The position numbers and the translations under genes are program-made. This document shows positions 3,521 to 45,579 of a DNA stretch of 60,000 nt, one piece after another. Location of the stretch: the NCBI GenBank assembly GCA_051294905.1, contig CM119371.1:40612001-40672000 (forward strand), given 5' to 3'. The notes beneath the pieces were generated by a model. That model was not told the DNA's origin and did no database searches. It saw only the letters and a program-made list of their open reading frames with translations. Every line of letters begins with the position of its first letter. Positions within the stretch are counted from its first letter, which is position 1. The stretch comes from Botryllus schlosseri (Eukaryota).

Positions 3521-3522
3521 AT

Positions 3523-3926
3523 TGTAGCGACCCTGATACGGCGCTGTCGACCTAACAGGGACGTCGTTGTTCTTCGGTTCAGAAACCCTCTCGTCGGCGA
3601 CCCGCTACCACCAGCATGCCATCAAGTACACCCAGGAGTATTTACAAATTACGAATTTAATGCCAAGCCACTTAATACAACCAAATACTCCAATCAGTAC
3701 CTCACAGAGATATACAGGCACTACACTACATTGCAAGTACAAATACACAGTTCACTAGCATTCCTCAGCTTCCTACTACACGACCGCGCGCTCAATAACA
3801 CGTGCAGCCAGAATCGCAAAGAACATTCTACCAGCTTCCACGAAGAAAGCTCACACTAGCCAATCAACTGTGACAAAACAATGCGATCACTGACCCATTA
3901 CAATATTCAATTCCCAGGATGTTACA
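3523..3926 (-). repeat. 5' LTR
   Basis: Direct repeat of 1699-2102, adjacent to the PBS. Confidence 0.92.
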
Positions 3927-8146: not shown

Positions 8147-11100
8147 TCATAACTTAACGTTGGAACTTGTTGGTGCTTCAATTGGTTGCTTCAACACAGC
8201 CAAGTTCAACATGTTGGTAGCAAACTGACATATTGTTGGATTATTTGTCCTTGCCCCACGTTCTCTTTGCATACCGAAGTATGCCTCCAAAGTGTCCTGA
8301 TTTACTTTTCTTGTCATCACAAAGTCTGCTCCACTGCCCAGGGTATTTTTCACAATTTCGACCATTGATTTGGTGGCAATGCGCAAACCATTTCTGGTTG
8401 CATCACTCAAAATCATTTTTGATCGGTCAACCTCTCCTACCAATCTCAAATTTTGGGCATTAGTTTCCCAGCTGTCTAAGTATCCCAAAAATTCCGTCGA
8501 CAGCCAGTTTAACCGTGGGTCGGTTACAGATTTGAATGGTTCTCTCGACTCCTTGAACTTTTTGCCTTGATAACCAGTATTCATATAATCAAACCATTTA
8601 TCAATTGTCATCAAGAATTTTCCCAAAGCCTCACATCCTCTGCTTTGAACTACAGAGCCTATGAAAATGAGAAGGTGCTGGTTAGCAAATATCTGATTCG
8701 AGGTGCAAGCTTCATTAATTATAATGCTCACCCATAGTTGCAGACAGAGTTTGAGCGGCGATACGGACATTCATTTTTTGCCAGGCATTTGGTGATGCAT
8801 GGGCCTCAGTCAGCTGGGGATAGATGCGAAGATCGCCTCTCGATATGTCTTCCTATTTTTCAAATATGGATATTGGATATATATGAAGTGTCAGTAATAA
8901 AAAATGGCTAGTCAATTATACCCGTATAATCTCAGTGATTGGCTTTTTGTAAATAGGACCCATGTTCCACAGACTCTTTTTACCGTTGAAGAGATTATTT
9001 CTGCAGGTTTTCAACAGATGTGGTGGATCGGGTATAAAATATATGTACCTGTGTTAGAAATACGGTAAGATTAGTCAATAGAATGTTGCCTGAAGTAGAA
9101 GATCATGTGCCTTTTTGTGTCAATGGGGTTTTTCATGCGATATGGAACTTGATCATCATTATAATCTCCAAGCAAAGCCATCACAGTTCGGTTCGCTGGA
9201 AGTCCATCAACTAAACAAAACTCACGTAGTCATCTTTATTAAAGAAGTGTACCATATTTCAAGAATTAACTATGATAATATACTTCTGATACCAAAGAGC
9301 AAATGAGGTAAGCCAATTAAGCATTGGCACATGATGTAATAGGACTTACAAACAATTCCTTCAATGATACAACTTGTCTGAAGTTGAACTTCGACCAGAA
9401 GATCCAGTAACAGAAAAAAGAGATCCGACGAATCTATCCCAGCTGTCGGGTAACATGCAATGACTCCATCTAGGTCTTTATTGGTTATTCCTGGATTTTA
9501 GTTCACGAGGCACCAGTTTTAAACTATGTCCTTTTATTTACAGAATTCACTGACCTCGCATGTATGCAGCAAGGATGTGACTGGCCATTTTATCGGAAGA
9601 TTTTGACAATCCTGTGTATACTTCATTTTCGTAGTCAACCAGTCCAATGATAGCATTTGTTGAAGATTGATAAATAAGTTCCTCTGAAAGTTGACGGTAA
9701 GCAATGCGTAACAATGATGACATACCGTACTGTCAATAAGCCAAACCTTTTATTGTCATCTCATCCAAAGCAAGAACAACATATCTGTCACATTCTTTTG
9801 AAGCTTTTGCAACAGCATCTCTTGTGATCTCTGCGGCCTTGGTTTGAAAGCCATACCCACATATTCCAAAGTCTTTGTTTCTGGTGGTATTTAATGTCCG
9901 GGGTGAAGGCAAAATCAATATTTTCCGAATTAACTTGTATGCTGCTGGTGATTTGGCGTACAAATGAAGAATATTTATATCTTAGGTCCCAAACACAAAG
10001 ACTGTTTTCAATTTACCTTACTACCGATGGCGGAAATCTTCTTTGAAATTTGGACTTTTCAGCCTGCAAAGCTAACTGCGTCTCCCACCATTCCTTCAGG
10101 AAATTGTCAGTGCTAGCAATTTCCTCCACAAAATTAGCCATTCCTTCACCTAATGTTACACCCTTAGCTTCCAGCAGTGACTCAAGATCAGAAATTCTGG
10201 ATAAAATTTATAGGTGAATTCTCGATTTAGTTCGAGCCAATCTGTTACCACTTACCAATATATTATCCTATATTGTTTATATCGCCCCATAACTAACTCT
10301 CTTACAATATGTAAAACGCATTCAATGTTTCAACTGACCGTGTCTGACACAAAGACCATGATTGTTCTAGTCTTTCTCGACTGGCCCTTTCTGCTTGCTT
10401 TATAGGTACCTCCTGCAATTTGGACAGCCTGCGATATTTACTCCTTTGCTTTTCATCAAATTTAACATGTGACTTCATGCATTCTGCACATACAGATCCA
10501 TCTTTGGAGATGACAACCTCGCATGTTTTGGTATAATGTCTGCAAAAGTAACATCCTCGAAATTGTTAGTATAATTGCGTCACAGTTTTAAAATAAGGAC
10601 AATAATATTTATAATATAAGAATATATGATTAAGTATCTGCTTTGCTTGGAAACTTGCAAACTACCTCATTGCAATGTACTTGGTCGTAATTCTGAAGTT
10701 TTTTTTATATTCTTTGCCAACTTTTGTAAGTCTATTCAACTTTGTAATTTTAATTTTCTCAGATCCAATACACGAAAAACTTAACTGACCTCGATTTTTC
10801 GACCAACTTTCCTCCCTCTTTTGTTGCAGTGCAACGTACTCTCCAGAGGTTATCCTCCACGCTAAAATCTGCATACCCGTCACAGACATCCAACTTTTTC
10901 AAATCCCGAAGCAGCTTTTGAAGCGAAAATTCCAAAGTAAGAGTATGTGAGTATGCTGATGCATACACTCCTTGAATGGCTAAAGACAGTTCAAAGGAAG
11001 AAGATTGATGCCGAATCAAGAGACTCATGTATGGACACGCGTGAATGTCGGGGTCTTTGTAATATGTCAAGTGCAGCCTGTTTTCATCGATTTTGTGGGC

Positions 11101-11985
11101 TCTCCAGTTTACAATAGGATGCAAAACAAAATCAGTGTAAACATCATCAATAGAACCATAATCTTTCTTATTCGGGTAAGAAATTGTAAGTGAATATTTG
11201 ACAATTGTTCTTCTAGCAGAATTTGGAGTGCACTCGTGTGATTTTTTTGGGAGATTTTCCGTAGGCAGAGCTCCCCATTTGATCCGGGATCGTTTGCTGT
11301 TGGCCACTATGTCTCCTGAAGCAAAATGCTTCTCGCAAATGTACACTTCCTTCGTCTTCAGACGATTACGAAATTGAGAATCATCCCTGTATTTCAATAA
11401 ACGCTGAAATGAAAGGATACTTGATGTTCATGGATTGCATTGTGGTTTTTGGGGTCAATGAATAGATGGATTGGTAACAACAGTAGGTACCGGACGAGCA
11501 GGTATTCACTAGAGGTGGCAATAGAGTAGGGTTACCATACGTAGGATTTGTCCTCCTTTTTCAGGTTTTTGAAAATGTCCTCTGAGGACGCCTAAATATC
11601 CTCCTTTTTGGTGATTCGTCCTTTACAGCTAAGATAATGGAAATTCGTGGTTCGATCAAAAGCGACGACCTTTTTTTAGTCAACCCTTCAGCAAAAATAG
11701 CGAAATCGACTGATTTCAGTTTTGACCAACTAACTTATCTGAATTGGTAAAAGTGTCCTCCTTTCCCCCTTCCAAAATATGGCAACCCTACAATAAAGTG
11801 ATCAGAGTTTAGAACGAGTTGTTAACCTGATGAAAATTGGATGCCCATTCTTGATCTGCAGAATGGGAGCTACCATCTTTCTCATTTGGAACTTTATACA
11901 GGCGAATCCCACTTCTCTGAGAACTTGTACACCCCGGCAAACAGCAGTATTTACCGGATCCCTTTCCACACCAGGCCTTTTTCAT
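8147..11985 (-). CDS. Multi-exon THAP-domain P-element-type (THAP9-like) transposase
   Basis: Exon 1 (11827-11985, KYCCLPGC...W) splices GT-AG in frame to 11403 (ICEKHF...GALPT), giving a C2CH THAP domain. Later exons carry LYAKSPAAYKLIR..LPSPRTL, LALDEM, DGLPANR, DPPHLLKTCRNNL, KMNVRIAAQTL and NQDTLEAYFG..R..G.RTNNPT. Internal exon boundaries not all resolved. Confidence 0.88.
11527..11790. mobile_element. hAT-type MITE in transposase intron 1
   Basis: TAGGGTTACCATA ... TATGGCAACCCTA TIRs; 8-bp TSD CAATAGAG/CAATAAAG. Confidence 0.85.
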
Positions 11986-12492
11986 GTCTCTCTGTAGGCA
12001 AAACTATCTAATTCTTTCTCAATTAAAGAATAGAACTCGGTCACTACTTCACAATTCCAGCAACTTGACAGCAAATTTTGTCATTGTAATGCAAAAGTAA
12101 CAAAGTTTAACACTCAATCATTGGGCTATTCATGCATACCAAAACTTTGCATTTTTTTTCGTTCCAATGTAGTAATTGACAAATAATTGCAAAGAATGAA
12201 CGAAGTGACGAGCAGCCAGTAATCTATTGATATTTTTTTTCCAATAAAAAACTCTAAAAACACCACAAGATTGTCATAATGAAAAGTTACAAGGGAGACT
12301 TGGAGTAATTGTTTTTTAATTTTCTAATATGACACCCAACTTGGCCTCAGAGAACATTTAAATGCATGCAAAGTGTACACTGAAAGAAAATAATAGAAAG
12401 CAATATAAAATGGAAACGGAAATATGCAAAGGAAATGAAGTAGCATGTGTCGGAAATATGAAGAACCAGTTTCGATAATGTTGAGACCATAT

Positions 12493-13502
12493 TCAGCTTC
12501 GGATACGATCTCGCAGTGCTTTGGAAGCTCTAGATTTATATTTCTTTTGTTCATGATAATTTCTCGTCGCAGCCAGGCAGTATGTATGAGTTCTTGTTCT
12601 CACATATTTAGAAATGAGGAGTTTCACAAGGGTCTGGTCACAATGTGGAAAATGTAATGGAATATTGACATTCCCGAGAATGCTTCTCATGTCAATAAAC
12701 CGTGAGTTTTTTTGCTTTTGAAAATAAATTTCGACTTCTTTCATTAGGTAAAAAAATCTTTCATTTGGGCATATCAGTCCTCCTCTGTTTTTAGGTTCGA
12801 ATTCCATTGGTAGAGGGTTCTTAGATACTTGGTTTTTACACCAATCTCTCCATTCACCAGGAAACTTTTTGACAGCCCACTTCAATATAGCACCACATAT
12901 ATATTTAATTACTTTCAGGTCATCATCAGTTATCAATACACTCTTATACTTTGAAACTCCCCAGTCCGTAGCTTTTTTAATTGCTCCAGGAATCATCGTC
13001 TTCAGCAATTGCTTGACACGACTTTCAGGTATATCTAAGCAGCAAATGTAGGTCTTTTGCATGAGGGCAGAGTATGATAGCATCATTTCCTTTTTACTTT
13101 CGAATGATACAGTTTTCTTTATATCTTGCAATAGTTCTTTGTATAGGTCTGTTTCCTTTCTTATCGTTATTTCCAATCCTAAAGTACATATTCCGGTGTC
13201 CAATAGTTCCTCACAGTTAACATCCGATATCAATATCTCCACAGTTTGACTCTCCGAACATCCCTCCCTATCTGACGTTCCAACTATGTCCTCTTCATTC
13301 TGAAACATATGAGCAAAAACGTCATTTAACTTCAAGAGGCCCTTTTCAACACAACAGCAAGGGCCAAGGGGGGGTACTCCCTAGTTCCGTTTGACTTTCA
13401 CTCCTTTATTAAGAACATGAAATAATTAGTATATCATCAGTTACTATAGCTATTACTTACGTCATTAAATATTTCTTCGAGTTCTTCCTCAGTAAGATCC
13501 AT
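12493..13502 (-). CDS. Second P-element gene (2 exons, ~309 aa) with YICGA...RGGLxxP motif
   Basis: Exon 1 (13461-13502, MDLTEEELEEIFND|GTAAGT) joins in frame via an AG acceptor at 13380 to ORF 12493-13335. Confidence 0.7.
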
Positions 13503-13785
13503 CGGCTAGATACAAAATACGCACAGGTCTAAGTAGCAAATGGCCGCAGAAAATGAAAGTCGCAGTCTTACACGCGGTGTCGCTGCACGGAACAACAAAA
13601 GCACTGAATCGGTCTGCCGCTTCCAGGCTAGTTTGTAAAGGCTATGATATTAACAAACAATCATAACATACACCCATAACGGGTGGGCTGTCACACTGCT
13701 CCCCCCAAAAGTAGAGGGAATTACATAATAAAAAATTCACTCTCACATCTAACCAAAAACTAACAATTATCAAAATAAACAATAA

Positions 13786-15082
13786 TCATGACTCATAATC
13801 CAACAAATACCTAGGACGCCTGACAAGTCGCTTCGACCTTGTAGTATATACAGTTTCAGGCACGTCCTGGTCATTCACAATATCAAAAATCTCATCACCA
13901 TGATCAGAAACATCTGCTATTACCGGTTCAAAAACATCACTACTTTCCCCATCGTCACGATTATAAGGCATCAGGTAATCAACATGAGACTTGCGAAAAT
14001 TCTGAGTTCCAACTTTCTGTATGCGGTAAACACACTCTGAAATTTGCTCAACAATTACATAGGGTCCTGACCATCCAGAGGACAATTTTCTCTTTTTAGG
14101 AGGATAGAAATACCAACAATAGTCACCCACCGCAAAAGCCAGCGGTCTCACCGCACTATCAAAATCACGTTTCTGCCTTACTGCAGACTTAGATAGATGT
14201 TCTCGAGCAAAAGTAAAAGCATCTGAACATGCATCACGAAACCAATTCACATAGTCCACATAGCATTTCGCTATCTCATTATTGGAGGGGTGTCCATACA
14301 TGATATCTGTAGGAAGAGATATCTCACGACCCATAAACAGGCGATTCGGGGTATAACCAGTGGAATGATGAACTGTTGAGCGATAAGCCATCAAAATATA
14401 CGGCAAATGGTCAGCCCAATCAGACCTAGAATCATCAACAAAACTAGTAAGCATTTGCTGCAGCGTTCTGTTCATACGCTCACAGAGTCCATCCGAACGG
14501 GGATGATAGGGAGTGGTACGTGTCTTCCTAATATCAAAGAGCAAACACATGTGCTGAAAAAGTTCCCCCTCGAATTGTCCCCCTTGGTCAGTATGAATTA
14601 TCCGTGGGCACCCATATTTGGTGAAAAATTGGGACACCAGAATTTCTGCAGTATTCTGAGCAGATTTAACACGCATCGGATACACTTCAACCCATTTCGA
14701 AAAGTAATCAGTAAGCACCAACATGTGCATTGTGCAAATACCCCTCGTCAGTCTCAGGCAATGGCCCAACAAAATCAAGCGACACTCTATCTAAAGGTTC
14801 AGCACAAAGCATCTTGCACAAAGCAGCTTGGTGAATACCATGAGGTGACTTGGTAGCCGTACAAGTCTTGCAAAATTTCACCCAGTGCTCCACCATGCGT
14901 TTCATACCAGGCCAGTAGTAGCGTTCTCTCATCTTCCAGTAAGTCTTGTCACGTCCAAGGTGACCTGCAGTCCGAAGACTATGAAGATGATTGAAGAGTT
15001 CCCTGCGCCATGATCTTGGCACTACCAGTTGATACATTATGGGACATCCAGGCTTTGTCTTCGAATACTTCCTATACAGCAC
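13786..15082 (-). pseudogene. Gypsy integrase, frameshifted
   Basis: HHCC zinc finger (H..RTAGH...CKTC) in 14708-15082; DDE core (TDQG, GLCERMNR) and GPY motif in 13786-14778; frames separated by a 7-bp duplication (TGCACAA TGCACAT on the minus strand) near 14725-14738. Confidence 0.9.
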
Positions 15083-17574
15083 TCCATTACACCATCAAAA
15101 TCGACCTATACCAGCAAAGGTCGACTCAACGCATATCACGGTAACCGTGTTCAGATATAGATACGATTGTTACCAGAACTTTGGAGCCGAAGCCGGAGCC
15201 CGGAGCCTGAGCCCCGGAGCCGTGCATTTTCGCCGGAGCTGGAGCCGGAGCCGGAGCTCTACATAAAATTTAGCCGGAGCCGGAGCCGGAGCTGGAGCCC
15301 GTTATTTGAGGAGTAGCTCCGGCTCCGACCTATTTCATAAGATGCTATTATATATGCAACAACCACATCTGCTGATTTATCATAATTGAACTGAATTTTA
15401 ATGCTGTGCACAGCAATGGCATGGAGTAAATTGCGTTCTAGTGCAACTATGATGTTGTCGACAATTGACAAGTATTCAATATGAAGTCACAAGCCGGCAC
15501 GGCGGCACCTAAGTAGTTAGTACGATCGCTCGCACATTGGCGTGGGGTTCTTATGGGCGGGGTGGCATGGTGCCGAGAAACCGGGGGTGGCATGGTGACC
15601 CTTATGTCTTATGGCGGGGGTGGCATGGTGCCATTGTGTCTTATGGCGGGGGTGGCATGGTTACCTTTTCGGGTATAGGCTGCGGCGGCATGGTGCCGTG
15701 AAACTCGTGTTGGCATATCGCGCTTTTAGACCCCCCCTTCCGCTCGCACATCGCCATTGGTTCTTATGGGCCCGCTCGCATGTCGCACTTTCGGGTATAG
15801 GCATCTCTCGCACATCGCATGGAAAACTCGTGGTGGCACATCGCCCTTTCGGGTATAGGCATCTCTCGCATGTCGTACTTTCGCGTATAGGTTGTGGTGG
15901 TGATTCGCCATGTGTTCTTATGGGTGCGGTCGTATGCGGCTATTGCGTCTTATGGCCCCTCTCGCACGGTAACTCTTTTCAGTATAGGGATCGCTCGCAC
16001 GCGGCTGGGAAACTCGTGGTGACATGCTAATGTTTTTTGGTATACGTGCGGCGACATGCTAACGACGATAAATGTGTCTGTCATGTATTCTTACGGGATC
16101 TGTGGTGACTCGCCATGTGTTCTTATGGGTGCGGTCGTGATTCGTACTTTCAGGCATCTCTCGCGCGGTGTTGAATATGTACGAGTCACCAACAATAACC
16201 GCACAAACGGAAACGTGGCTTGCAAGAGGATTTACGCAGTGCGTGCGACCTATATTCCGAACGACCTGCGCGCTGAATTATTTCTCGTCCAGCCGTGTGC
16301 TACTATCGATTATTACACTAGGTCAGTCAGTGCGAAATAGTTTGCTAAATCTAGGAATCACTTCCAAGGTAATATTTTGGTAATTAGTTTACCGCAGAGC
16401 CGGCGTAGCCGGCGATTCGAATATCAACAATAACCGCGCTCGCAAACTAACACTTCAAAAAGATGTGAAATATTTGTAAAATCCTACGATCGCTCACAAG
16501 ATACCACTTCCGGCATATCGATCTATCACTCAATACACAACCGAAGTTGAATTATAATTGAATGCGTAAATTTATCACCTCGGCATCAAAATTCGAAAAC
16601 AACAACTTGATGCTTTATGTTCTCACTATAATTTCGTGATAAGTGTAATAAGTGCCGAATAACAGATACACCCCCGGCGAGACTTGAATACCAACAAATT
16701 GTCACTTATTTCTATTCTAGCCGTAATCCTTTGTGAAGTTAACGCTTATTCAAAAAGGTGTGAAATATTTGCAAAACCCCGCGATCACTGACAAGATAAT
16801 GTCTCGGACATAACCATCTTTCACGACTTGGTGTCATAGCCAAACCGATCGCTCACGCGGTGAAATTTTAGTAAGCAGTTTGTCACAGAACTTGATTTCG
16901 CTGGTAAGATTTAACTAGTAACGAATAACAGACCGCCAGTGTCGGTAACTTGAATAGCGACAAATTGTCACTTATTTCCGCTCTAACCCTAATCCTTTGT
17001 GAAGTGAACGCTTATTCAAAAGGATGTGATATAATTTTAAAATCCAACGACCACTCACCGGATAATACTTCAGACATAGCAATTCCTCATACCCGCCCAC
17101 AAGGTAATATTTCGGTAATTAGTTTGTCACAGAACCGTCGCAGGCGGTGATTGGAAAACCGACAATTTGTCACTCGCCCGCGATCGCTATATGTTTCACG
17201 CCTCCAGAATAGTGGCTGACTTTAGTTGTGTGATAAGATCCATGAAAATATTCAATCAATGTGTTAGCTTATCAACTTGAAATGAAACTCACTACACAAA
17301 TCAAGTCGATTCGTATCTGAATGTTTTAAATCGACACAACTCAAATCCTTTGACAAATCCCTTAACGCGTTTTTGTTGAATCGAACGTAACCCGAATATT
17401 ACTGACGCCGACTTTCAGCCGCATCGAATTATTCGCACATTCCGCGTCGCTGTTTTCGCACTTATAGAATCAATACCAACTATAACTCTACAAGAATCAA
17501 GAATCACAAGTATGTGCATTACACAGTTATTGTCTTTATTAACTTGAAATCAAACACTTAACAAAAACACGCAA

Positions 17575-17940
17575 CTAATCATTTGGCAACTCTAGCATTA
17601 CCAAAAAATTCCAGTATTGTTGATTGAAAATCCTTGAGTCATTATTATCAAAAATGTTATAGTACCGCATCGGGATCCATTCGCGGGATGTACTAAAGGT
17701 AAATCCAAATAATCCACATTCGCGGGATGTACTAAAGGTAAATCCAAATAATCCACGTTCGCGGGATGTACTAAAGGTAAATCCAAATAATCCAGAATGA
17801 AATATTTGGACTTTGACATAGTGTGAATTGAAATAGGATTGACAAACACGACTACCAACTTTGATCCAGCCACATTTCAAGATCATACTTTGAAACAAGT
17901 AATGTAACATTACAACTCTATTCACGATCCCGCTTTCCAT
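17575..17940 (-). CDS. Hypothetical 121-aa arm protein (left-arm copy) with in-frame 39-bp repeat
   Basis: ATG start; AATAAA ~35 nt after the stop; present in all four arms. Confidence 0.35.
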   Translation of the reverse strand: MESGIVNRVVMLHYLFQSMILKCGWIKVGSRVCQSYFNSHYVKVQIFHSGLFGFTFSTSRERGLFGFTFSTSRECGLFGFTFSTSREWIPMRYYNIFDNNDSRIFNQQYWNFLVMLELPND

Positions 17941-20721
17941 TTGTCAAAGAGATATTTTAACATCTTACCATACTCAAAAGAATTATTCACAACATTAACA
18001 ATTGTTCAAAATCTAGTTTTCACTTACTTGATTATATCACTGCAACTCATAAATTTGAATTAATTCATCCTGGTTGTATTCGTATGCTCGGTCTTTTTTA
18101 TTCAATTGTAAAGGTTGTTACTATTCTGAAGACAAAGTATTTACAAATCGGTGCATATACGATTTGACTTGGACATACTATATTTCGAGTATACGAGATT
18201 TGAATGTCTGAACAATAACTGAGAAATAATTTATCACAATTAAATCCGTAATATTACAGCGTAAAAGATATTGGAATGTCAGCAACTCTGTAAGGTCATA
18301 GTTACTACCACTAATTTACCCGACCAACTCGTCATGATCATTCCTGAAATCAACACAAACGTGACCACTGACTTGAGTTAACCACAAAACAGCATCAAGT
18401 TTTAAATCCACTTGTAGCTTACGGCTTATTTGAATGCGGGTTATGTTTTGTTGTAATTGAGTGTACGGAAATAGTATTACGTCTCGACATATCACCATGT
18501 CGGAATTTGTGACAGAGAATTGAAACATATGCACTTTACAGAGTGTGAAAATATCACTTTGAGTATCGAGTACCGTTCGAAGCTAGCGATCAATTCTTAA
18601 TCATTTCAGTAACTCCCCATTGTGTGTGCTAAATGTAAAATATCGCGAGGTTATACACTCTAAGACTTTGATCATTACAAAAGTAAATTGTGATATGTTT
18701 GTTAGATGCATCCAATTCAACTAGAAGTGTCTAGTGCCCAACACTCGTAATATCAAAAAAGTACTTGCTACACTGTTATTTGCTACGTGTTATGCATTGT
18801 TGTTTATTTGTAGTATTGAATGAAATTGTTCTTGAACCCTCAAATAATAATCCCCGACATGAAACCAAGCCGCTGAAAGTCGTTACCATCACGAAGATAC
18901 AATGTGTACGATGTTTGTCAAATGTGTCCTACCTGACCAACAGAAAACAATTTTCACTAGCTTGGTAATGAAACCGAAGTCTCCATTCGATATTTTGTTT
19001 GTGTCAAATACTTTGCAATGAACACATTTGGGTGGTTGAGCTTTACATCATCAGACTGTCATCTGTACATCAAGAATACATCCGACTTGTAACCGGATCG
19101 TTTACCTAACCGAGTTGTATGCACAGTTTGATATTTTTGTCATTTAGTGATTGCTGAACATACCACTTCGAAATACTGCGTTGATCTTAATTTCCATCAT
19201 CGTGATAAGTGAAGTACATTTGTTTTGAATTCATAACAATAGGCTTTTCTACGACATGGTAAATTATTGACAAGTTCTGCTTAGAAGATTGGTTGCATAT
19301 CACGAAAAATAATATACCACACATATTATTACTGTTACTCCATTCATCGGCATTTTTTCCGTTGTCGATTTTCAAACGAGTAAAATTTATTACTTGAGTT
19401 GCTCTGCTTACTATATTTAAATGTAAACTCGCCCGTCTTTCAACAACAAACAATGTTAAAAAAGTATGCAATCAAACACAACAAGTTTTACGATACTAAT
19501 TATTATCCCACATAACCCATTTCTTACCGAAGACATATGAAATATATTCATGTTACACGAAAATATTCGCTCATGCTACAAACCTGTACAATGATTGGGG
19601 GTGCTTTCAAACTGTTTCGATACCTCAAGAACTTTATCGTCTGAACGGTTGTTCATGTATCGTAATAATCAAGTAGTTCAACATAGAACTAGTATTAACA
19701 GAAACATCAGAGTTGTTTACACAAAAGTTTGTATGCGTGCAGTATGCGAATACCATGTGTAAGTCCAGCACAATTGTGGTATCCATCCGGGTTTAGTTAA
19801 CACAATTTACGACACCGAGGTCACCTCATCTTTCGTAAGACAACAAACCAACCAAGGTTTCAGGATATGTCCGTGTCATAGCAATAAATCAGCTACTACA
19901 ACAACAGAGTACATATGTTTTCTAGTTACGGCGCTTACGTCTTACACACAAATCAATCCACTTTACTAACAAAAAGTGCTGGGTCATCAAGTGATTACCC
20001 TAACAACAAAACAGCTAAACGTACTATCATACAAAATGGCCGTTATAGTCACCAACGGTACATCGTACAAGTAACAAGTCTCGAGAATCCAGTTATTGAA
20101 AAAACATGAAAGTGTTTCTACACCAAGTCGTTATGTTGACGAAAGCGTATATTGTAATATCATGATCGATTTGCATTCGTTGGTCACAAAATGTCACTAC
20201 TCTAAATAATTATTTTTCAATCAAACACAAACGCATACTTGTCGCCAATCGTTTTCATCAAGCACGAGTTCAAGAAACCTGCTACGACATGAATTGTTAT
20301 TTTTTTATGTTGTGTAAATAGGTAATAATTAATTTTAGTAACACTATATCAACATCATCTAGTTGCGCGAATAGATTTACACGTGGTCTTGTGGTTTTAA
20401 TCGAAGTAAACAGCGCGGTCTAACGCGGAGTCATCTCTATTGTACAGCAACTCGGAAATCGAAATGCATGCATTAACATTTAAACAGCGATCGCGTTTCG
20501 TGACGCGAAAAATATGTTCACCACCGCGATACTCTGCACAGGCGTGCAAATCCTTTTCACACTCGTAATAGTATACCAACGGCTACCGGCGACAACGTTT
20601 AACAATACCAACGACACTAAACATACGATACCTACCCAAGTAAAATTTCCATTTTCACCTGGAGGTCAGCCGTTACCTGACTAAAAATACCATTGTCCTT
20701 TGGAGATTTATCGTTTACGCA

Positions 20722-21200
20722 GTGTAACAATCCCCTTTTCACTTGGAAATATATTTTTGACCTGGATAACAAACCCCTTTTCACTTGGAAATCTATTTTT
20801 GCCCTGGATAACAAACCCCTTTTCACTTGGAAATCTATTTTTGCCCTGGATAACAAACCTTTTTCACTTGGAAATATATTTTTTCTCTTGGTAACAAACC
20901 TTTTTCACTTGGAAATATATTTTTTCTCTGGTTAACAAACCTTTTTCACTTGGAAATATATTTTTTCTCTGGTTAACAAACCTTTTTCCACTTGGAAATA
21001 TATTTTTTCTCTGGTTAACAAACCTTTTTCACTTGGAAATATATTTTTTCTCTGGGTAACAAACCTTTTTCACTTGGAAATATATTTTTTTCTCTGGTTA
21101 ACAAACCTTTTTCACTTGGAAATATATTTTTTCTCTGGGCAACAAACCTTTTCCCCCGGGTAACAAACCTTTTTCCCTGAGCAACAAGCCATTTTCACTT
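20722..21200. repeat. 39-40-bp minisatellite in arm (AACAAACCTTTTTCACTTGGAAATATATTTTTTCTCTGGT)
   Basis: Roughly 11 units; mirrored at ~24120-24598; shorter arrays in copy 2. Confidence 0.9.
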
Positions 21201-22818
21201 GGTGGGTCGTCGTTTACCTGAGTAAAAATATCATTTTCCTTTGGAGATCTGGCGTTTACCCAGTGTAACAATACATTTTCTCTTGGTCATCTAGCTTTTC
21301 CTAGAGTAACTAATCATTTCTCCCGGGTAACAAACCCTTTTCGTCTGGAAAACTATCATTTACCCGAGTACCAATACCGTTTTCACTTGGAAATCTATCT
21401 TTTCCCTGGGTAACAATATCATTTTCGTTTTGAAAACTGACAACCACACCGGCCAATTTGATATTTTTGGATATTGCTACAACGGGTAGTGACAAAATAT
21501 ACACCAACAACGACTCCGATACATTTGTCTAATCAAATATTCACTTGCTCTGATGCATCCCATCAAAATCATTGGTTACTCACATACAATAACAATGTGC
21601 TGTTGTACATCGACATGTATGTTTTCGGAATTGGCGAATAAAGGGGTTTCCGATATGTCTGTGATGTCCGGGTTCGTGCTTTGGATTTTCCAGAGTCAAA
21701 ATGTCTGAATAAAACACCCCCCCCTTGACTTTGGTAACTGGTTGATACACGGATAATGGTGTTCGGAAAACGGATGAATTTATGTTCCCCATCGCGCTAA
21801 TAACTCCGGGTTACTTGTGAGTTTCCTCAGGTCTGTTTACTATATTGTGTCTTTACTGGTCAATACATGTCGCTCCAGTCAGCTGCAACCGGATCACTAA
21901 TATGAGAAAGTGTGTGGGCCTGATCCGGATATTCACTCATGAACCAACGACCAATATTCAAGTAAACATGTTACAGACCGTGTTTTGTCTCCATGAAAAA
22001 TACCAATGCATACACCATCACATACAAGTAACGTCACGATTGTTCACAAGTATTCGCGTAAACGAGGTGTACATACAATGTGTCGGTGTACAAACATCAT
22101 GGAAAACAAATTCATGTTCTCAAGTATCATCATGCGACGACTCTGTACATTCAATGTGGGCATAGATGACTTGGGGACAGACAAGCAGCCATATTTGGAC
22201 GTAACACGATCTTAGTATGAGCCGCCTCAACCCAACTTGTGAAAAATGAATCTCACACGAGTACAACCCTTTCACGGGTTCACACCTTGATTTTGCAAGA
22301 TTTTTCGGATTCTCATGTAGACTTGCATCGTGATCCAGACCTCGACTTAATCGGGTTGCGTAACTCGCTCAACCCCTGCGTATCGTTGGTCATAACCTGC
22401 TAACTTTTTCGCTGAGACCGCAGTGTTTCACCTGGTTTTATGTATTTGGTGATTACCATCGTTATCAATCTTTCACGCGATGAATATGTCGGATGTCGCT
22501 ACTCCCACATAACGACTCCAGCTAAACATCGTGAGCAGTGACTCCGGATTGAAATCGTAAACAGGGACTCTGTGTGTGTGTGTGAATCTCGAGTTCGATT
22601 ACGATTAGATAATGTAATCCAGGGTGTGTCTCTGCGAGCTGAAGGCGGATTTCGTGTTAATCACACCGCAAGAGGGTGCTATCTCGTAACTCGACAGGTC
22701 AACATAAATCGCGGTTGGAAACTTTTGGTCTAGTTGATCCAGCTACGTATTGAAACGTTGTACCCACACAGCCCATTGAGAAAATGTTGTCGTTACCTGA
22801 CCATATCCACGAGTAAAT

Positions 22819-23094
22819 ATGGGACTACGCGTAACTGTCCATAGATTCCTCTGGCCCCACACCGTGGTTTTACGACACAGACAAGATGCAGCGGTGGAAA
22901 TATTGAAAATGAAAAACGATACCTTGGTGACATTTGATTTGGATTTTACACCTGATGAACCATACACTCGATTGGTACATTGGGATGACAACTCTATCGT
23001 TGAGGTCAAGGGAAAAGAAATGTACAGATTTGTTGGTGTTGTGGATATTCAGCGAAAATCAGGGTATATGGTTGTGTATGGTTCGCATATTTGA
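22819..23094 (+). CDS. Conserved 91-aa hypothetical protein in the palindrome loop
   Basis: ATG to TGA; ungapped homolog of the same length at 45197-45472. Confidence 0.8.
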   Translation: MGLRVTVHRFLWPHTVVLRHRQDAAVEILKMKNDTLVTFDLDFTPDEPYTRLVHWDDNSIVEVKGKEMYRFVGVVDIQRKSGYMVVYGSHI

Positions 23095-23145
23095 CTGAGA
23101 ATATATCGGTATGCATAATGCACTGTCCATTGTATCATGTCGTGT

Positions 23146-26100
23146 GTCATCTATGCCCACATTGAATGTACAGAGTCGTCGCATGATGATACTTGAGAAC
23201 ATGAATTTGTTTTCCATGATGTTTGTACACCGACACATTGTATGTACACCTCGTTTACGCGAATACTTGTGAACAATCGTGACGTTACTTGTATGTGATG
23301 GTGTATGCATTGGTATTTTTCATGGAGACAAAACACGGTCTGTAACATGTTTACTTGAATATTGGTCGTTGGTTCATGAGTGAATATCCGGATCAGGCCC
23401 ACACACTTTCTCATATTAGTGATCCGGTTGCAGCTGACTGGAGCGACATGTATTGACCAGTAAAGACACAATATAGTAAACAGACCTGAGGAAACTCACA
23501 AGTAACCCGGAGTTATTAGCGCGATGGGGAACATAAATTCATCCGTTTTCCGAACACCATTATCCGTGTATCAACCAGTTACCAAAGTCAAGGGGGGGGG
23601 GGGTGTTTTATTCAGACATTTTGACTCTGGAAAATCCAAAGCACGAACCCGGACATCACAGACATATCGGAAACCCCTTTATTCGCCAATTCCGAAAACA
23701 TACATGTCGATGTACAACAGCACATTGTTATTGTATGTGAGTAACCAATGATTTTGATGGGATGCATCAGAGCAAGTGAATATTTGATTAGACAAATGTA
23801 TCGGAGTCGTTGTTGGTGTATATTTTGTCACTACCCGTTGTAGCAATATCCAAAAATATCAAATTGGCCGGTGTGGTTGTCAGTTTTCAAAACGAAAATG
23901 ATATTGTTACCCAGGGAAAAGATAGATTTCCAAGTGAAAACGGTATTGGTACTCGGGTAAATGATAGTTTTCCAGACGAAAAGGGTTTGTTACCCGGGAG
24001 AAATGATTAGTTACTCTAGGAAAAGCTAGATGACCAAGAGAAAATGTATTGTTACACTGGGTAAACGCCAGATCTCCAAAGGAAAATGATATTTTTACTC
24101 AGGTAAACGACGACCCACCAAGTGAAAATGGCTTGTTGCTCAGGGAAAAAGGTTTGTTACCCGGGGGAAAAGGTTTGTTGCCCAGAGAAAAAATATATTT
24201 CCAAGTGAAAAAGGTTTGTTAACCAGAGAAAAAAATATATTTCCAAGTGAAAAAGGTTTGTTACCCAGAGAAAAAATATATTTCCAAGTGAAAAAGGTTT
24301 GTTAACCAGAGAAAAAATATATTTCCAAGTGAAAAAAGGTTTGTTAACCAGAGAAAAAATATATTTCCAAGTGAAAAAGGTTTGTTAACCAGAGAAAAAA
24401 TATATTTCCAAGTGAAAAAGGTTTGTTACCAAGAGAAAAAATATATTTCCAAGTGAAAAAGGTTTGTTATCCAGGGCAAAAATAGATTTCCAAGTGAAAA
24501 GGGGTTTGTTATCCAGGGCAAAAATAGATTTCCAAGTGAAAAGGGGTTTGTTATCCAGGTCAAAAATATATTTCCAAGTGAAAAGGGGATTGTTACACTG
24601 CGTAAACGATAAATCTCCAAAGGACAATGGTATTTTTAGTCAGGTAACGGCTGACCTCCAGGTGAAAATGGAAATTTTACTTGGGTAGGTATCGTATGTT
24701 TAGTGTCGTTGGTATTGTTAAACGTTGTCGCCGGTAGCCGTTGGTATACTATTACGAGTGTGAAAAGGATTTGCACGCCTGTGCAGAGTATCGCGGTGGT
24801 GAACATATTTTTCGCGTCACGAAACGCGATCGCTGTTTAAATGTTAATGCATGCATTTCGATTTCCGAGTTGCTGTACAATAGAGATGACTCCGCGTTAG
24901 ACCGCGCTGTTTACTTCGATTAAAACCACAAGACCACGTGTAAATCTATTCGCGCAACTAGATGATGTTGATATAGTGTTACTAAAATTAATTATTACCT
25001 ATTTACACAACATAAAAAAATAACAATTCATGTCGTAGCAGGTTTCTTGAACTCGTGCTTGATGAAAACGATTGGCGACAAGTATGCGTTTGTGTTTGAT
25101 TGAAAAATAATTATTTAGAGTAGTGACATTTTGTGACCAACGAATGCAAATCGATCATGATATTACAATATACGCTTTCGTCAACATAACGACTTGGTGT
25201 AGAAACACTTTCATGTTTTTTCAATAACTGGATTCTCGAGACTTGTTACTTGTACGATGTACCGTTGGTGACTATAACGGCCATTTTGTATGATAGTACG
25301 TTTAGCTGTTTTGTTGTTAGGGTAATCACTTGATGACCCAGCACTTTTTGTTAGTAAAGTGGATTGATTTGTGTGTAAGACGTAAGCGCCGTAACTAGAA
25401 AACATATGTACTCTGTTGTTGTAGTAGCTGATTTATTGCTATGACACGGACATATCCTGAAACCTTGGTTGGTTTGTTGTCCTACGAAAGATGAGGTGAC
25501 CTCGGTGTCGTAAATTGTGTTAACTAAACCCGGATGGATACCACAATTGTGCTGGACTTACACATGGTATTCGCATACTGCACGCATACAAACTTTTGTG
25601 TAAACAACTCTGATGTTTCTGTTAATACTAGTTCTATGTTGAACTACTTGATTATTACGATACATGAACAACCGTTCAGACGATAAAGTTCTTGAGGTAT
25701 CGAAACAGTTTGAAAGCACCCCCAATCATTGTACAGGTTTGTAGCATGAGCGAATATTTTCGTGTAACATGAATATATTTCATATGTCTTCGGTAAGAAA
25801 TGGGTTATGTGGGATAATAATTAGTATCGTAAAACTTGTTGTGTTTGATTGCATACTTTTTTAACATTGTTTGTTGTTGAAAGACGGGCGAGTTTACATT
25901 TAAATATAGTAAGCAGAGCAACTCAAGTAATAAATTTTACTCGTTTGAAAATCGACAACGGAAAAAATGCCGATGAATGGAGTAACAGTAATAATATGTG
26001 TGGTATATTATTTTTCGTGATATGCAACCAATCTTCTAAGCAGAACTTGTCAATAATTTACCATGTCGTAGAAAAGCCTATTGTTATGAATTCAAAACAA

Positions 26101-29100
26101 ATGTACTTCACTTATCACGATGATGGAAATTAAGATCAACGCAGTATTTCGAAGTGGTATGTTCAGCAATCACTAAATGACAAAAATATCAAACTGTGCA
26201 TACAACTCGGTTAGGTAAACGATCCGGTTACAAGTCGGATGTATTCTTGATGAACAGATGACAGTCTGATGATGTAAAGCTCAACCACCCAAATGTGTTC
26301 ATTGCAAAGTATTTGACACAAACAAAATATCGAATGGAGACTTCGGTTTCATTACCAAGCTAGTGAAAATTGTTTTCTGTTGGTCAGGTAGGACACATTT
26401 GACAAACATCGTACACATTGTATCTTCGTGATGGTAACGACTTTCAGCGGCTTGGTTTCATGTCGGGGATTATTATTTGAGGGTTCAAGAACAATTTCAT
26501 TCAATACTACAAATAAACAACAATGCATAACACGTAGCAAATAACAGTGTAGCAAGTACTTTTTTGATATTACGAGTGTTGGGCACTAGACACTTCTAGT
26601 TGAATTGGATGCATCTAACAAACATATCACAATTTACTTTTGTAATGATCAAAGTCTTAGAGTGTATAACCTCGCGATATTTTACATTTAGCACACACAA
26701 TGGGGAGTTACTGAAATGATTAAGAATTGATCGCTAGCTTCGAACGGTACTCGATACTCAAAGTGATATTTTCACACTCTGTAAAGTGCATATGTTTCAA
26801 TTCTCTGTCACAAATTCCGACATGGTGATATGTCGAGACGTAATACTATTTCCGTACACTCAATTACAACAAAACATAACCCGCATTCAAATAAGCCGTA
26901 AGCTACAAGTGGATTTAAAACTTGATGCTGTTTTGTGGTTAACTCAAGTCAGTGGTCACGTTTGTGTTGATTTCAGGAATGATCATGACGAGTTGGTCGG
27001 GTAAATTAGTGGTAGTAACTATGACCTTACAGAGTTGCTGACATTCCAATATCTTTTACGCTGTAATATTACGGATTTAATTGTGATAAATTATTTCTCA
27101 GTTATTGTTCAGACATTCAAATCTCGTATACTCGAAATATAGTATGTCCAAGTCAAATCGTATATGCACCGATTTGTAAATACTTTGTCTTCAGAATAGT
27201 AACAACCTTTACAATTGAATAAAAAAGACCGAGCATACGAATACAACCAGGATGAATTAATTCAAATTTATGAGTTGCAGTGATATAATCAAGTAAGTGA
27301 AAACTAGATTTTGAACAATTGTTAATGTTGTGAATAATTCTTTTGAGTATGGTAAGATGTTAAAATATCTCTTTGACAAATGGAAAGCGGGATCGTGAAT
27401 AGAGTTGTAATGTTACATTACTTGTTTCAAAGTATGATCTTGAAATGTGGCTGGATCAAAGTTGGTAGTCGTGTTTGTCAATCCTATTTCAATTCACACT
27501 ATGTCAAAGTCCAAATATTTCATTCTGGATTATTTGGATTTACCTTTAGTACATCCCGCGAACGTGGATTATTTGGATTTACCTTTAGTACATCCCGCGA
27601 ATGTGGATTATTTGGATTTACCTTTAGTACATCCCGCGAATGGATCCCGATGCGGTACTATAACATTTTTGATAATAATGACTCAAGGATTTTCAATCAA
27701 CAATACTGGAATTTTTTGGTAATGCTAGAGTTGCCAAATGATTAGTTGCGTGTTTTTGTTAAGTGTTTGATTTCAAGTTAATAAAGACAATAACTGTGTA
27801 ATGCACATACTTGTGATTCTTGATTCTTGTAGAGTTATAGTTGGTATTGATTCTATAAGTGCGAAAACAGCGACGCGGAATGTGCGAATAATTCGATGCG
27901 GCTGAAAGTCGGCGTCAGTAATATTCGGGTTACGTTCGATTCAACAAAAACGCGTTAAGGGATTTGTCAAAGGATTTGAGTTGTGTCGATTTAAAACATT
28001 CAGATACGAATCGACTTGATTTGTGTAGTGAGTTTCATTTCAAGTTGATAAGCTAACACATTGATTGAATATTTTCATGGATCTTATCACACAACTAAAG
28101 TCAGCCACTATTCTGGAGGCGTGAAACATATAGCGATCGCGGGCGAGTGACAAATTGTCGGTTTTCCAATCACCGCCTGCGACGGTTCTGTGACAAACTA
28201 ATTACCGAAATATTACCTTGTGGGCGGGTATGAGGAATTGCTATGTCTGAAGTATTATCCGGTGAGTGGTCGTTGGATTTTAAAATTATATCACATCCTT
28301 TTGAATAAGCGTTCACTTCACAAAGGATTAGGGTTAGAGCGGAAATAAGTGACAATTTGTCGCTATTCAAGTTACCGACACTGGCGGTCTGTTATTCGTT
28401 ACTTGTTAAATCTTACCAGCGATATCAAGTTCTGTGACAAACTGATTACTAAAATTTCACCGCGTGAGCGATCAATATGCCTGTAACACCAAGTCGTGAA
28501 AGATGGTTATGTCCGAGACATTATCTTGTCAGTGATCGCGGGGTTTTGCAAATATTTCACACCTTTTTGAATAAGCGTTAACTTCACAAAGGATTACGGC
28601 TAGAATAGAAATAAGTGACAATTTGTTGGTATTCAAGTCTCGCCGGGGGTGTATCTGTTATTCGGCACTTATTACACTTATCACGAAATTATAGTGAGAA
28701 CATAAAGCATCAAGTTGTTGTTTTCGAATTTTGATGCCGAGGTGATAAATTTACGCATTCAATTATAATTCAACTTCGGTTGTGTATTGAGTGATAGATC
28801 GATATGCCGGAAGTGGTATCTTGTGAGCGATCGTAGGATTTTACAAATATTTCACATCTTTTTGAAGTGTTAGTTTGCGAGCGCGGTTATTGTTGATATT
28901 CGAATCGCCGGCTACGCCGGCTCTGCGGTAAACTAATTACCAAAATATTACCTTGGAAGTGATTCCTAGATTTAGCAAACTATTTCGCACTGACTGACCT
29001 AGTGTAATAATCGATAGTAGCACACGGCTGGACGAGAAATAATTCAGCGCGCAGGTCGTTCGGAATATAGGTCGCACGCACTGCGTAAATCCTCTTGCAA

Positions 29101-29808
29101 GCCACGTTTCCGTTTGTGCGGTTATTGTTGGTGACTCGTACATATTCAACACCGCGCGAGAGATGCCTGAAAGTACGAATCACGACCGCACCCATAAGAA
29201 CACATGGCGAGTCACCACAGATCCCGTAAGAATACATGACAGACACATTTATCGTCGTTAGCATGTCGCCGCACGTATACCAAAAAACATTAGCATGTCA
29301 CCACGAGTTTCCCAGCCGCGTGCGAGCGATCCCTATACTGAAAAGAGTTACCGTGCGAGAGGGGCCATAAGACGCAATAGCCGCATACGACCGCACCCAT
29401 AAGAACACATGGCGAATCACCACCACAACCTATACGCGAAAGTACGACATGCGAGAGATGCCTATACCCGAAAGGGCGATGTGCCACCACGAGTTTTCCA
29501 TGCGATGTGCGAGAGATGCCTATACCCGAAAGTGCGACATGCGAGCGGGCCCATAAGAACCAATGGCGATGTGCGAGCGGAAGGGGGGGTCTAAAAGCGC
29601 GATATGCCAACACGAGTTTCACGGCACCATGCCGCCGCAGCCTATACCCGAAAAGGTAACCATGCCACCCCCGCCATAAGACACAATGGCACCATGCCAC
29701 CCCCGCCATAAGACATAAGGGTCACCATGCCACCCCCGGTTTCTCGGCACCATGCCACCCCGCCCATAAGAACCCCACGCCAATGTGCGAGCGATCGTAC
29801 TAACTACT
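23146..29808 (-). repeat. Right inverted arm of copy 1
   Basis: Reverse complement of 15512-22170. Confidence 0.95.
27380..27745 (+). CDS. Hypothetical 121-aa arm protein (right-arm copy)
   Basis: Mirror of 17575-17940; AATAAA at 27780. Confidence 0.35.
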   Translation: MESGIVNRVVMLHYLFQSMILKCGWIKVGSRVCQSYFNSHYVKVQIFHSGLFGFTFSTSRERGLFGFTFSTSRECGLFGFTFSTSREWIPMRYYNIFDNNDSRIFNQQYWNFLVMLELPND

Positions 29809-29911
29809 CACCTATATGTCTTTGTTGCTACATCGGATATTACTGACGGCTGACGGACTCTAGATTACTATAGATAACTAACCTATTAGTAGATTAGTAA
29901 TCCATAGAGAC

Positions 29912-36703: not shown

Positions 36704-36951
36704 TGTGGCCGTTCTGTCTTTGTTCCTATTATAATCTATATACCTCACAGAAGATGATGCCACTGTCTTTCAGGTTCGAGACTGAAATGAGAGGTTCCAC
36801 CGAATGCGAACTCACAGTATGTATTTCACAAAAGCAGCAGTCTAGTACCAAAGCCAGCGCAGCAGAATACGAATAATACTAGTTCCTCATTTTCCCGCCG
36901 GCGTGATCTCCTAACCGGAGATCACCCAGCCTCCGGATCCGAGCGGTTACA
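36704..36951 (-). repeat. 3' LTR
   Basis: TGTGGCC...GGTTACA, identical to 55603-55850. Confidence 0.95.
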
Positions 36952-37074
36952 CCTCTCCCCTCCCTAATTGAGTGAGCTAGGAGGAAAAAGATCACTCACA
37001 AGCGGCAAGGCCGTGCAAAAATAAATACAAATGACAATACGTACAAAAAAAAGCAATCACATGAAGTAACAAGA

Positions 37075-38592
37075 TCAATTGAAGTCAGTTACATAGTCGT
37101 TTAAATATGCAGGTCGAATACGATTACGTCTGGGCATGACATTCATTTCACAGTTTGAAGGTATGACAACAGTTTCAGAATTCAAGGACTCTGCGGGTGA
37201 CTGACTGGGTAAGTCCTCTTCACCCTCAACAATATAAGGATGGAGATTATCAACATGGGTTATGCGAAATTTGCTTGTGTCAACATTTTGAATACGATAC
37301 ACAAAATTTTCCAATTTCTCGACAACTCGCCAGGGACCATTCCAGCCAGAGGACAATTTCCTATGCTTAGGCGGGTAATAAAACCAAACGTAAGAGCCAA
37401 CTTCAAATTCGTGCGATTCAACATAACGATTGAAATATGTTTTCTGTTTCACAGCAGATCTACGCAATTTCTCACGTGCAAATTTAAACGCATCAACACT
37501 GGCCGCAGAAAACCATTCAACATAGTCAGTGTAACATTTGCGCGGCGTGCATTTCGGAGGTCTACCATAAACAATATCACTCGGCAAGGAAACTTCACGA
37601 CCAAGAAATAACTTATTAGGAGTGTACCCAGTGGAATCATGAACACTTGAACGATAAGCTTGCAGTAAATATGGCAAATGAACATCCCAATCAGATCTAC
37701 TCTCATTGACATAACTGGTCAACATCTGCAAAATGGACCTATTATTTCTCTCAGTTAACCCATCAGATTGGGGTCGAAAAGTTGTAGTTCTAGTCTTGAA
37801 AATTTCATACAATTCACACATCTCTTGAAATAACCTGGATTCAAATTGCACTCCTTGATCAGTGTGTATAATATTCGGTGCGCCAAACTTACAAAAAAAT
37901 TCTGTCACAAGAATATCGGCTGCTGATGCAGCCAGAAGGTCCTTCATTGGGTACGCTTCAACCCACTTAGTAAAATAATCAGTAACCACCATCAGGTATT
38001 TATTGCCCAGTTCAGTAGATGGCATAGGACCCACAAAATCAAGAGAAATCCTATCTAAGGGTTCAGAGCAAAGCATCTTTACCAATTTGGCACGCTTTTT
38101 TCCATGTCCAGTTTTACTTGATGTGCAAGGTTTGCAAAATTTTACCCAGTTACTGACATCTTGCTTCATGCCGGGCCAATAAAAGCGATCTCTCAATTTA
38201 GCATAAGTTTTGTCCCGCCCCAAATGGCCACCTGTTCGCAAGGTATGATATTCGGTAAATAGTTTCCTACGCAACGACATGGGCATAACAATTTGAAAAG
38301 TTGAATCACAGCCGGGATTAACTTGCAAATATTCACGATACAAAACACCATTACGCAAAGATAAAAACTTCCAATGAGAACACAAGACTCTGACCATGTG
38401 AGAATGCAGTAGCAACTCTTCGGAAGAAGGTTTACCACTGGCAGATTCCTTCAATGATATTACCGTCCCAATGTCCGAGTCGACCATCTGCAAATCGCGC
38501 AACTCTTCATTGGACAAAGTATGCAACCAGTTAGGCGCAGGCGAAGGTCGATCAACAGAGTTTGTAACGGAGTCGGTGCCCGCACTAACGGG
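37075..38592 (-). CDS. pol: pol C-terminal part: integrase
   Basis: HHCC, DDE (SLDF, TDQG, GLTERNNR) and GPW motifs; in frame with the N-terminal part once 38593-51691 is removed. Confidence 0.93.
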   Translation of the reverse strand, partial: PVSAGTDSVTNSVDRPSPAPNWLHTLSNEELRDLQMVDSDIGTVISLKESASGKPSSEELLLHSHMVRVLCSHWKFLSLRNGVLYREYLQVNPGCDSTFQIVMPMSLRRKLFTEYHTLRTGGHLGRDKTYAKLRDRFYWPGMKQDVSNWVKFCKPCTSSKTGHGKKRAKLVKMLCSEPLDRISLDFVGPMPSTELGNKYLMVVTDYFTKWVEAYPMKDLLAASAADILVTEFFCKFGAPNIIHTDQGVQFESRLFQEMCELYEIFKTRTTTFRPQSDGLTERNNRSILQMLTSYVNESRSDWDVHLPYLLQAYRSSVHDSTGYTPNKLFLGREVSLPSDIVYGRPPKCTPRKCYTDYVEWFSAASVDAFKFAREKLRRSAVKQKTYFNRYVESHEFEVGSYVWFYYPPKHRKLSSGWNGPWRVVEKLENFVYRIQNVDTSKFRITHVDNLHPYIVEGEEDLPSQSPAESLNSETVVIPSNCEMNVMPRRNRIRPAYLNDYVTDFN

Positions 38593-45472: not shown

Positions 45473-45579
45473 CTGTGATCACAATATTGGTATGTACTGT
45501 ATAGTTCACTTTCACCGTCGTGCGAATAACCCATGTTACGGTTCGGTGTTTGTGTGTCCGTATGTCACGCTTCAGATTG

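Follow-up and report, generated by a model that had tools for sequence, protein, structure and literature searches.

A small gene under purifying selection in the centres of long-armed foldback-type transposons of Botryllus schlosseri

Does the short open reading frame that lies in the centre of each of two very large palindromes in a 60,000-nt stretch of Botryllus schlosseri DNA (the whole stretch analysed, called the window below) encode a protein, and, if so, what kind of element carries it and what might the protein do there? The two frames, both on the forward strand, lie at 22819–23094 in the first palindrome (element E1; protein P0001, subfamily A) and at 45197–45472 in the second (element E2; protein P0002, subfamily B), stop codons included. 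Each is 276 nt long and encodes 91 amino acids before the stop; BLASTP finds the two proteins identical at 57 of 91 positions and positive at 74 of 91, with 0 gaps (E 4e-46), so that translation and alignment reproduce the lengths, identities and absence of indels given in a preliminary description of this DNA. The nucleotide identity of the two frames (A versus B) is 72.5–77%.

E1 consists of a left arm (terminal inverted repeat) at 15512–22170 that begins AGTAGTTAGTACGATCG, a non-palindromic middle or “loop” of 975 nt at 22171–23145 with the gene at its right end, and a right arm at 23146–29808 that matches the left arm in blocks of 6213 nt and 454 nt without a substitution and with an offset of a few bases; the target-site duplication CACCTA flanks the whole at 15506–15511 and 29809–29814. 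E2 is built of a left arm at 38593–44660 (beginning AGTAGTATAGTCGATCG), a middle of 919 nt at 44661–45579, again with the gene at its right end, and a right arm at 45580–51685 whose complementarity to the left arm is 100% in two blocks (4149 nt and 1938 nt) separated by a length offset, and its target-site duplication AACGGG lies at 38587–38592 and 51686–51691. Arms thus account for 2 × ~6.66 kb of the 14.3 kb of E1 and for 2 × ~6.1 kb of the 13.1 kb of E2, and the frame stops 51 nt (E1) or 107 nt (E2) short of the right arm. The left arm of E1 contains a 41-nt tandem array of ~10 copies at 20724–21152, continued by degenerate 42-nt units to 21438, with a mirror 41-nt array in the right arm at 24168–24596, ~1.07 kb 3′ of the gene stop (the full region of 41–42-nt units is 20724–21438, its mirror 23885–24596). 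A locus of another subfamily, the D-type L072, also has a 42-nt tandem array (2859–3045) ~1.1 kb downstream of its gene stop; its period equals that of the array at 24168–24596 and its distance from the gene is similar, a TTTCCA core alone is shared, and the arms of the two cannot be aligned. The period that both have kept, about four helical turns, may mark a binding array. The left arm and middle of E1 have no frame longer than 143 codons, and the frames that are present look repeat-derived.

Element termini read AGTAGT…ACTACT. Ten further elements picked by end similarity alone all begin AGTAGT, and a perfect 6-bp target duplication flanks 11 of the 12 elements (both of those in the window and nine of the ten others). 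In the genome (495.5 Mb in 219 contigs) a degenerate terminal 22-mer has 230 forward and 240 reverse matches and its reversed control has 0; its plus/minus pairs stand 9–32 kb apart, mostly 12.5–16 kb, and the members of a pair have the same sequence variant. Starting from the gene instead, inverted flanks around a middle of 882–1042 nt that contains the frame were found at 58 of 60 loci from the P0001 and P0002 searches. Both palindromes are transposons with a foldback-type layout, and they probably belong to a family of roughly a thousand foldback-type DNA transposons, 12–16 kb long, with arms of ~6–7 kb that contain 41–42-nt arrays; a thousand copies of ~14 kb each would make up roughly 3% of the genome.

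The surroundings of the two elements are repeat-rich, with few long frames and no tRNA gene in the window, and the domains recognised there are Ty3/gypsy reverse transcriptase and integrase, THAP and a P-type transposase. A Ty3/gypsy element at 36704–55850 has long terminal repeats at 36704–36951 and 55603–55850, reverse transcriptase/RNase H at 51599–54037 and integrase at 37075–38526 (both on the reverse strand), and the 13.1-kb palindrome E2 interrupts its pol gene. E1 lies ~430–490 nt from an integrase zinc-finger frame (14708–15082 and 13786–14778, reverse strand), and no reverse transcriptase is seen to its right. Further left, a P-superfamily-like element at 7360–13652 has inverted ends of ~290–470 nt in several blocks (7360–7833, 13214–13652) and reverse-strand frames with a THAP domain (10759–11397) and a TNP-like RNase H C-terminal domain (8147–8770); as an autonomous partner of the palindromes it was rejected because its ends differ from theirs. 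At the window’s left edge two inverted repeats (194–1695 and 1697–3820, with 386-nt arms 95% identical and 330-nt arms 84% identical), 300-nt direct repeats that are 100% identical and a 129-nt tandem array at 2489–2968 are unrelated to the gene.

Whether the central frame is coding can be judged from the way in which its copies differ. Between the two window copies the differences at codon positions 1, 2 and 3 number 28, 14 and 35, and NG86 dN/dS is 0.32 in the frame and 0.62 and 1.40 in the shifted frames. There are at least five subfamilies (A–E), which encode proteins of 91–93 aa with start methionine and stop at identical alignment positions and with a purine at −3 in 5/5 subfamily starts; TATA boxes and poly-A signals form no consistent pattern around the gene. 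The block might be kept not for a protein at all but as a cis-element in DNA or RNA (a binding site, an origin or a structured RNA), its open frame being incidental, and antisense open frames of 50–121 aa in some subfamilies would fit such a view. These antisense frames, however, break at different places in each subfamily, so that the sense frame is the sole frame open over the conserved block in all five; changes concentrate at third positions, with synonymous sites saturated and residues kept, start and stop positions are conserved, and Rfam has no match in the window, all of which makes a cis-element very improbable. Still less credible is the idea that the frame is open merely because its copies are recent and near-identical: many copies are indeed 92–100% identical in protein, but the subfamilies are 23–40% apart in nucleotides, with dS up to saturation and no stops or frameshifts between them, and the codon model described next contradicts it as well.

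Genome searches with P0001, P0002 and a third protein, P0006, returned 1203, 1193 and 1206 first-look candidates, and among the best 150 scored for each query 149, 148 and 142, respectively, have no internal stop; these scored rows were ranked by protein score and overlap between queries, and so are not an unbiased census. Among the best 150 of its 1206 candidates P0006 has no genomic match better than 80%, and its source may be an unscored copy or a different organism. Pairwise NG86 dN/dS among subfamily representatives is 0.10–0.40, with dS ranging from 0.19 to saturation at 3.9. A GY+F3X4 codon model fitted to 55 unique intact copies gave an omega of 0.30, and fixing omega at 1 on the same tree lowered lnL from −2140.07 to −2191.56 (51.5 units worse). 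This omega is biased downward, because 60 of its source loci were chosen by protein similarity and broken copies were removed (duplicates were left out, as were L066, which has no start methionine, L083, whose start is lost, and L085, which has a stop). For a related reason, that loci L001–L060 were ranked by protein score, their within-subfamily dN/dS was set aside; shallow within-subfamily pairs give values of 0.2–0.8.

A frame-blind sample was also assembled from the centres of 15 elements defined by their paired ends alone. The frame was located in nine of the 15: seven at the fetched centres (five of them intact) and two just outside, which are intact according to the genome searches, so that seven are intact in all and the other two are L083, with its lost start, and L085, with its single stop. 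None of the nine has a frameshift, whereas the 350-nt flanks of these copies show 0–9 gap events per pair. One terminus-picked element, L088, has lost its whole middle segment, and five of the 15 were not judged, since the centre calculated for them lay within an arm or within an unrelated insertion. Copies with two stops, the same in both arms, occur at two separate places in the genome (on contigs C1 and C14). The purifying selection proposed in the preliminary description is thus borne out both between subfamilies and by maximum likelihood, and the frequent frameshifts that it had weighed against its own proposal are absent from the terminus-picked copies. The gene is coding, is under purifying selection across element lineages and travels with the elements.

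Four copies that are otherwise open (L083, L095, L066 and L075) have a cysteine in place of the otherwise invariant tyrosine of the KSGY motif; L083 and L095 also share an altered C-terminal stretch, and the flanks of L083 are almost identical to those of E1. Such cysteine-variant copies and copies with a changed C-terminus look like the result of a converted or exchanged gene segment. The E1–L083 comparison can be put in numbers: the frames are 94.5% identical, the 350 nt upstream 99.4% and the 350 nt downstream 100%. Copies of one subfamily often differ more in the frame than in its flanks, which, in the case of E1 and L083, points to exchange of the gene segment between element backbones.

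How the frame compares with the DNA around it depends on the depth of the comparison. E1 and E2 are mosaics of each other: the arms agree at ~98% along a long middle stretch, the ends are rearranged, with patches of 80–90% identity, and the inner arms are 78% identical (21359–21975 versus 43865–44457), about the same as the frame. At this A-versus-B depth the nucleotides of the frame are conserved no better than those of the inner arm. Over the 5′ part of the two middles blastn aligns nothing and MAFFT gives a gappy alignment with one conserved island (22491–22533 in E1, matching 44905–44947 in E2, both on the forward strand), a possible promoter or cis site, which was not found in subfamilies C, D and E. 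The earlier statement that most of the loop DNA does not align holds for the 5′ part of the middle; the inner arms beside it, outside the loop, do align. Between subfamily A and subfamilies C, D and E (7.6 kb of E1 against 3.2-kb loci) blastn aligns nothing but the frame, and a search for shared k-mers returned no convincing non-coding motif common to A/B and C/D/E. Flanks as well conserved as the frame, which the preliminary description had counted against selection on the protein, are thus what is seen at shallow depth, as between E1 and L083; only between the deep subfamilies are they not.

The position of the gene in its element also varies. In the window (subfamilies A and B) it is, as had been described, a clear single-copy cargo of the loop, but in subfamilies C, D and E it forms an inverted pair inside the arms, the left copy on the reverse and the right copy on the forward strand, both pointing outward. 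Two C-type loci, L069 and L076, have a 42-nt loop at the closing point of the palindrome and 2.2 kb between their two genes; in a third, L067, part of one arm has given way to an asymmetric middle of 834 nt. The B-like L097, which also has two diverging copies in its arms, is a perfect palindrome with a 75-nt loop, and in each half of it an E2-type centre is complete, with the gene, the “loop” and the innermost 200 nt of the left arm. The derivation of the asymmetric middle from a symmetric ancestor by direct-repeat deletion is not preferred, since L097 makes the reverse at least as likely, namely that L097 is a secondary fold-back duplication of an E2-type centre. In either direction, the centre of the element has been re-made repeatedly. 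Gene pairs 12–43 kb apart were considered as candidate autonomous elements and rejected: in L064 another element is nested between the inverted gene pair and supplies an intervening end (an A-like end lies 1.2 kb from the E-type gene), and L081 consists of nested palindromes with 36-nt loops and without long frames. The loops of L076 (2711–2752, 42 nt) and L081 (2427–2462, 36 nt) are not adapter-like; that of L076 contains several CCTAA/CTAAC-like units resembling telomere-repeat motifs, which may be chance. On the window’s own contig (C1:16772825–16801530) one pair of element ends is nested 1.7 kb inside another, and further insertions may often land in palindromes.

Over ~700 nt of inner arm in gapped alignments, the median identity between the two arms of an element is 99.86%, and 27 of 30 A-type and 26 of 30 B-type loci reach 99.5% or more, whereas right arms of different elements have a median identity of 95.7% (A) or 96.5% (B) and so are ~4% apart. 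Since arms are near-identical within elements and differ between them, they evolve in concert within each element. This is best explained as arm-to-arm copying, by gene conversion or fold-back re-synthesis, and is a property of the elements separate from their gene; homogenisation during assembly polishing is a possible alternative source of the identity. A bolder reading, which we regard as unlikely, is that these are a new type of eukaryotic element that rebuilds itself as a palindrome, for which one half suffices and the rest is made by fold-back copying, with the 91-aa protein, in a fold family by itself, as its sole dedicated factor. One half (end, arm and gene) would then be the unit that persists, the other half being re-synthesised at or between transpositions, and hairpin or cruciform DNA might be what the protein recognises, or it might hold the two identical ends together for an integrase acting in trans. 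Fold-back re-synthesis would account for the contrast between arm identity within and between elements, for centres that shift between 36–75-nt loops and asymmetric segments of ~0.9 kb, and for nested palindromes and the same variant at both ends of an element.

The sequence of the protein gives little indication of its ancestry. Fourteen family members have no match in Pfam even at E values up to 10, apart from unrelated noise, a profile search of the PDB gave E values above 0.6 throughout, and the ESM Atlas has no neighbour. A search of 5.8 billion proteins found four unnamed clusters of 90–91 aa encoded on contigs of ~1 kb, and a profile search of 1.84 billion representatives found one true cluster; three other profile hits are repeat proteins with RTX and cadherin domains and were judged spurious. 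No longer or fused relative was found in the protein search, and none of any kind in viral and metagenome contigs. The remark in the preliminary description that the family is not recognisable thus applies to Pfam, to PDB sequences and to named relatives alike, and the protein is not a transposase of any catalogued family.

AlphaFold2, given a 14-sequence alignment, predicts an all-beta protein of eight strands (mean pLDDT 78.9, pTM 0.67), in keeping with the beta-rich fold that had been suggested from the sequence; three of the five models have pLDDT 76–79 and two have 31–37. Fold searches were led in all three libraries by HSP20/alpha-crystallin and CS/p23 sandwiches with weak scores: the best Foldseek E values are 0.023 (PDB) and 0.029 (BFVD viral models), and the best of 48,161 chains in VIA-align, 5zs3_A, has a Z of 5.2 (rmsd 3.7 over 68 residues), below the caution line of Z 8. 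The modelled protein weakly resembles HSP20/CS domains in being an eight-strand sandwich of ~90 residues with a long middle loop, but there is no sequence-profile match to them and the scores are in a range that unrelated sandwiches also reach. The most conserved polar residues include F39, D40, P45, E47, H54 and W55; they fall in the long middle loop, the part modelled with least confidence, and may form an interaction surface. We think, on balance, that the frame is a complete intron-less protein-coding gene, and that its product, with a mass of ~10.5 kDa, is a small all-beta protein whose family has no known relatives.

Transcription was looked for in two RNA runs that match the DNA in species label and were mapped on 22100–23220. 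A bulk run (X23) gave eight reads, all of them partial fits that are 95–99% alike, and a single-cell run (X21) gave six; all 14 lie within 22822–23220, that is, in the gene and its 3′ flank, and neither run has a read in 22100–22821. Since the X23 reads fit only partly, they come from diverged copies. The reads weakly suggest transcription of the gene together with its 3′ flank in some members of the family, and show neither transcript ends nor splice joints.

What, then, might selection be acting on? We think it quite possible, though short of probable, that the protein acts for the element’s own propagation and does so with a preference for the copy from which it was made. In a family of a thousand copies, a product that acts purely in trans is not easily kept under purifying selection, and we infer the cis-preference because an omega near 0.3 could otherwise hardly be held. 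Such a protein may be an adaptor that binds element DNA (the repeat arrays, subterminal repeats, or hairpin or cruciform DNA); alternatively, it may recruit a transposase or a host factor that is provided in trans. Neither a transposase partner for the gene-bearing elements nor an autonomous copy was found. Against a role in propagation stand L088, which is without its middle segment, and the broken copies on C1 and C14, which have moved; the presence of the two-stop copies at two places means that broken copies could still move and that any cis preference is not absolute.

The same broken and gene-less copies would be expected if the gene were a passenger, a small host or foreign gene captured once and since maintained through selection that has nothing to do with transposition, or only through hitch-hiking on active lineages, and so would the swapping of the middle segment as a cassette between backbones; the available portion of PMC4079207 likewise describes foldback elements as generally gene-less, with variable middle domains. 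A mere passenger would not, however, be expected to survive in five subfamilies whose DNA is otherwise unalignable, no copy outside elements was seen among the best 150 candidates scored, and no longer or fused relative was found, and we judge this explanation improbable. Alternatively, the gene could serve in counter-defence, shielding the element from its host without being part of transposition; it might blunt small-RNA silencing set off by hairpin transcripts, or shield the palindrome from hairpin-cutting repair nucleases. The element is an extreme inverted repeat, and read-through transcription across the 14 kb of such a palindrome would yield RNA that folds into long double strands, a trigger of RNA interference; the gene always points outward from the centre, the one layout that avoids self-complementary RNA. 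Its product is small, lineage-restricted and fast-evolving, and the exchange of deep allelic lineages between near-identical backbones fits a gene that interacts with the host. The searches made, on the other hand, showed no similarity to known silencing suppressors or nuclease inhibitors, and the overall omega of 0.30 indicates constraint, with no diversifying selection demonstrated, so that counter-defence too seems an unlikely main function. Of the roles considered, propagation of the element is the preferred one.

Foldback elements are usually described as gene-less hitch-hikers whose transposase lies elsewhere or is unknown. The present family is of foldback type and has retained one tiny uncatalogued gene under selection, while the other DNA of its elements has diverged beyond alignment. 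This offers a handle on what long-armed palindromic transposons need in order to spread, and on how cells tolerate and copy perfect palindromes of many kilobases. The gene is missing from the protein collections searched apart from the four unnamed clusters, and automated annotation evidently skips it.

Of the known systems with which these elements can be compared, Polintons (Mavericks) reportedly make 6-bp target duplications and have 5′-AG ends, and the elements share both features, but the arm and middle of E1 are without polymerase B, integrase, capsid and protease genes. The Polinton/adintovirus framing of the preliminary description finds no support: a search for PF03175, the Polinton polymerase B family, gave no match in this genome and none in the control genomes either, the arms have no long frames, and the protein has no relative on viral contigs. 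Large sex-chromosome palindromes, which are kept identical by arm-to-arm gene conversion, are similar in their near-identical arms, unique spacer and genes in arms or spacer; they are a few fixed structures, in contrast to the roughly one thousand dispersed insertions with target duplications here.

The closest resemblance is to foldback elements such as Drosophila FB, Tetris and Galileo, although we found no description of elements like these in the literature on foldback and palindromic transposons. The terminal inverted repeats make up most of the element, tandem repeats lie inside them, and target duplications flank the whole. In Galileo the end repeats hold transposase-binding sites (PMC3688188, also cited in PMC4079207); shared ends with a THAP-type transposase element, which would tie the present family to Galileo and the P superfamily, were not seen in the neighbouring P-like element. 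The accessible text of PMC4079207 divides foldback terminal inverted repeats into flanking, tandem-repeat and inner domains around a variable middle domain, and the same order is found here as ends, 41–42-nt arrays, inner arm and middle. The target duplication is 8–10 bp in Tetris and in the Mutator-type elements to which, in that text, most foldbacks are assigned, and is 6 bp in 11 of the 12 elements here, so that the Mutator/Foldback duplication length is not shared. Tetris, as far as that text describes it, has arms of up to 1.7 kb and no conserved frames, whereas the arms of the present elements are about four times longer (~6–7 kb), are near-identical within an element and ~4% apart between elements, and enclose a middle domain in which a small gene has been kept.
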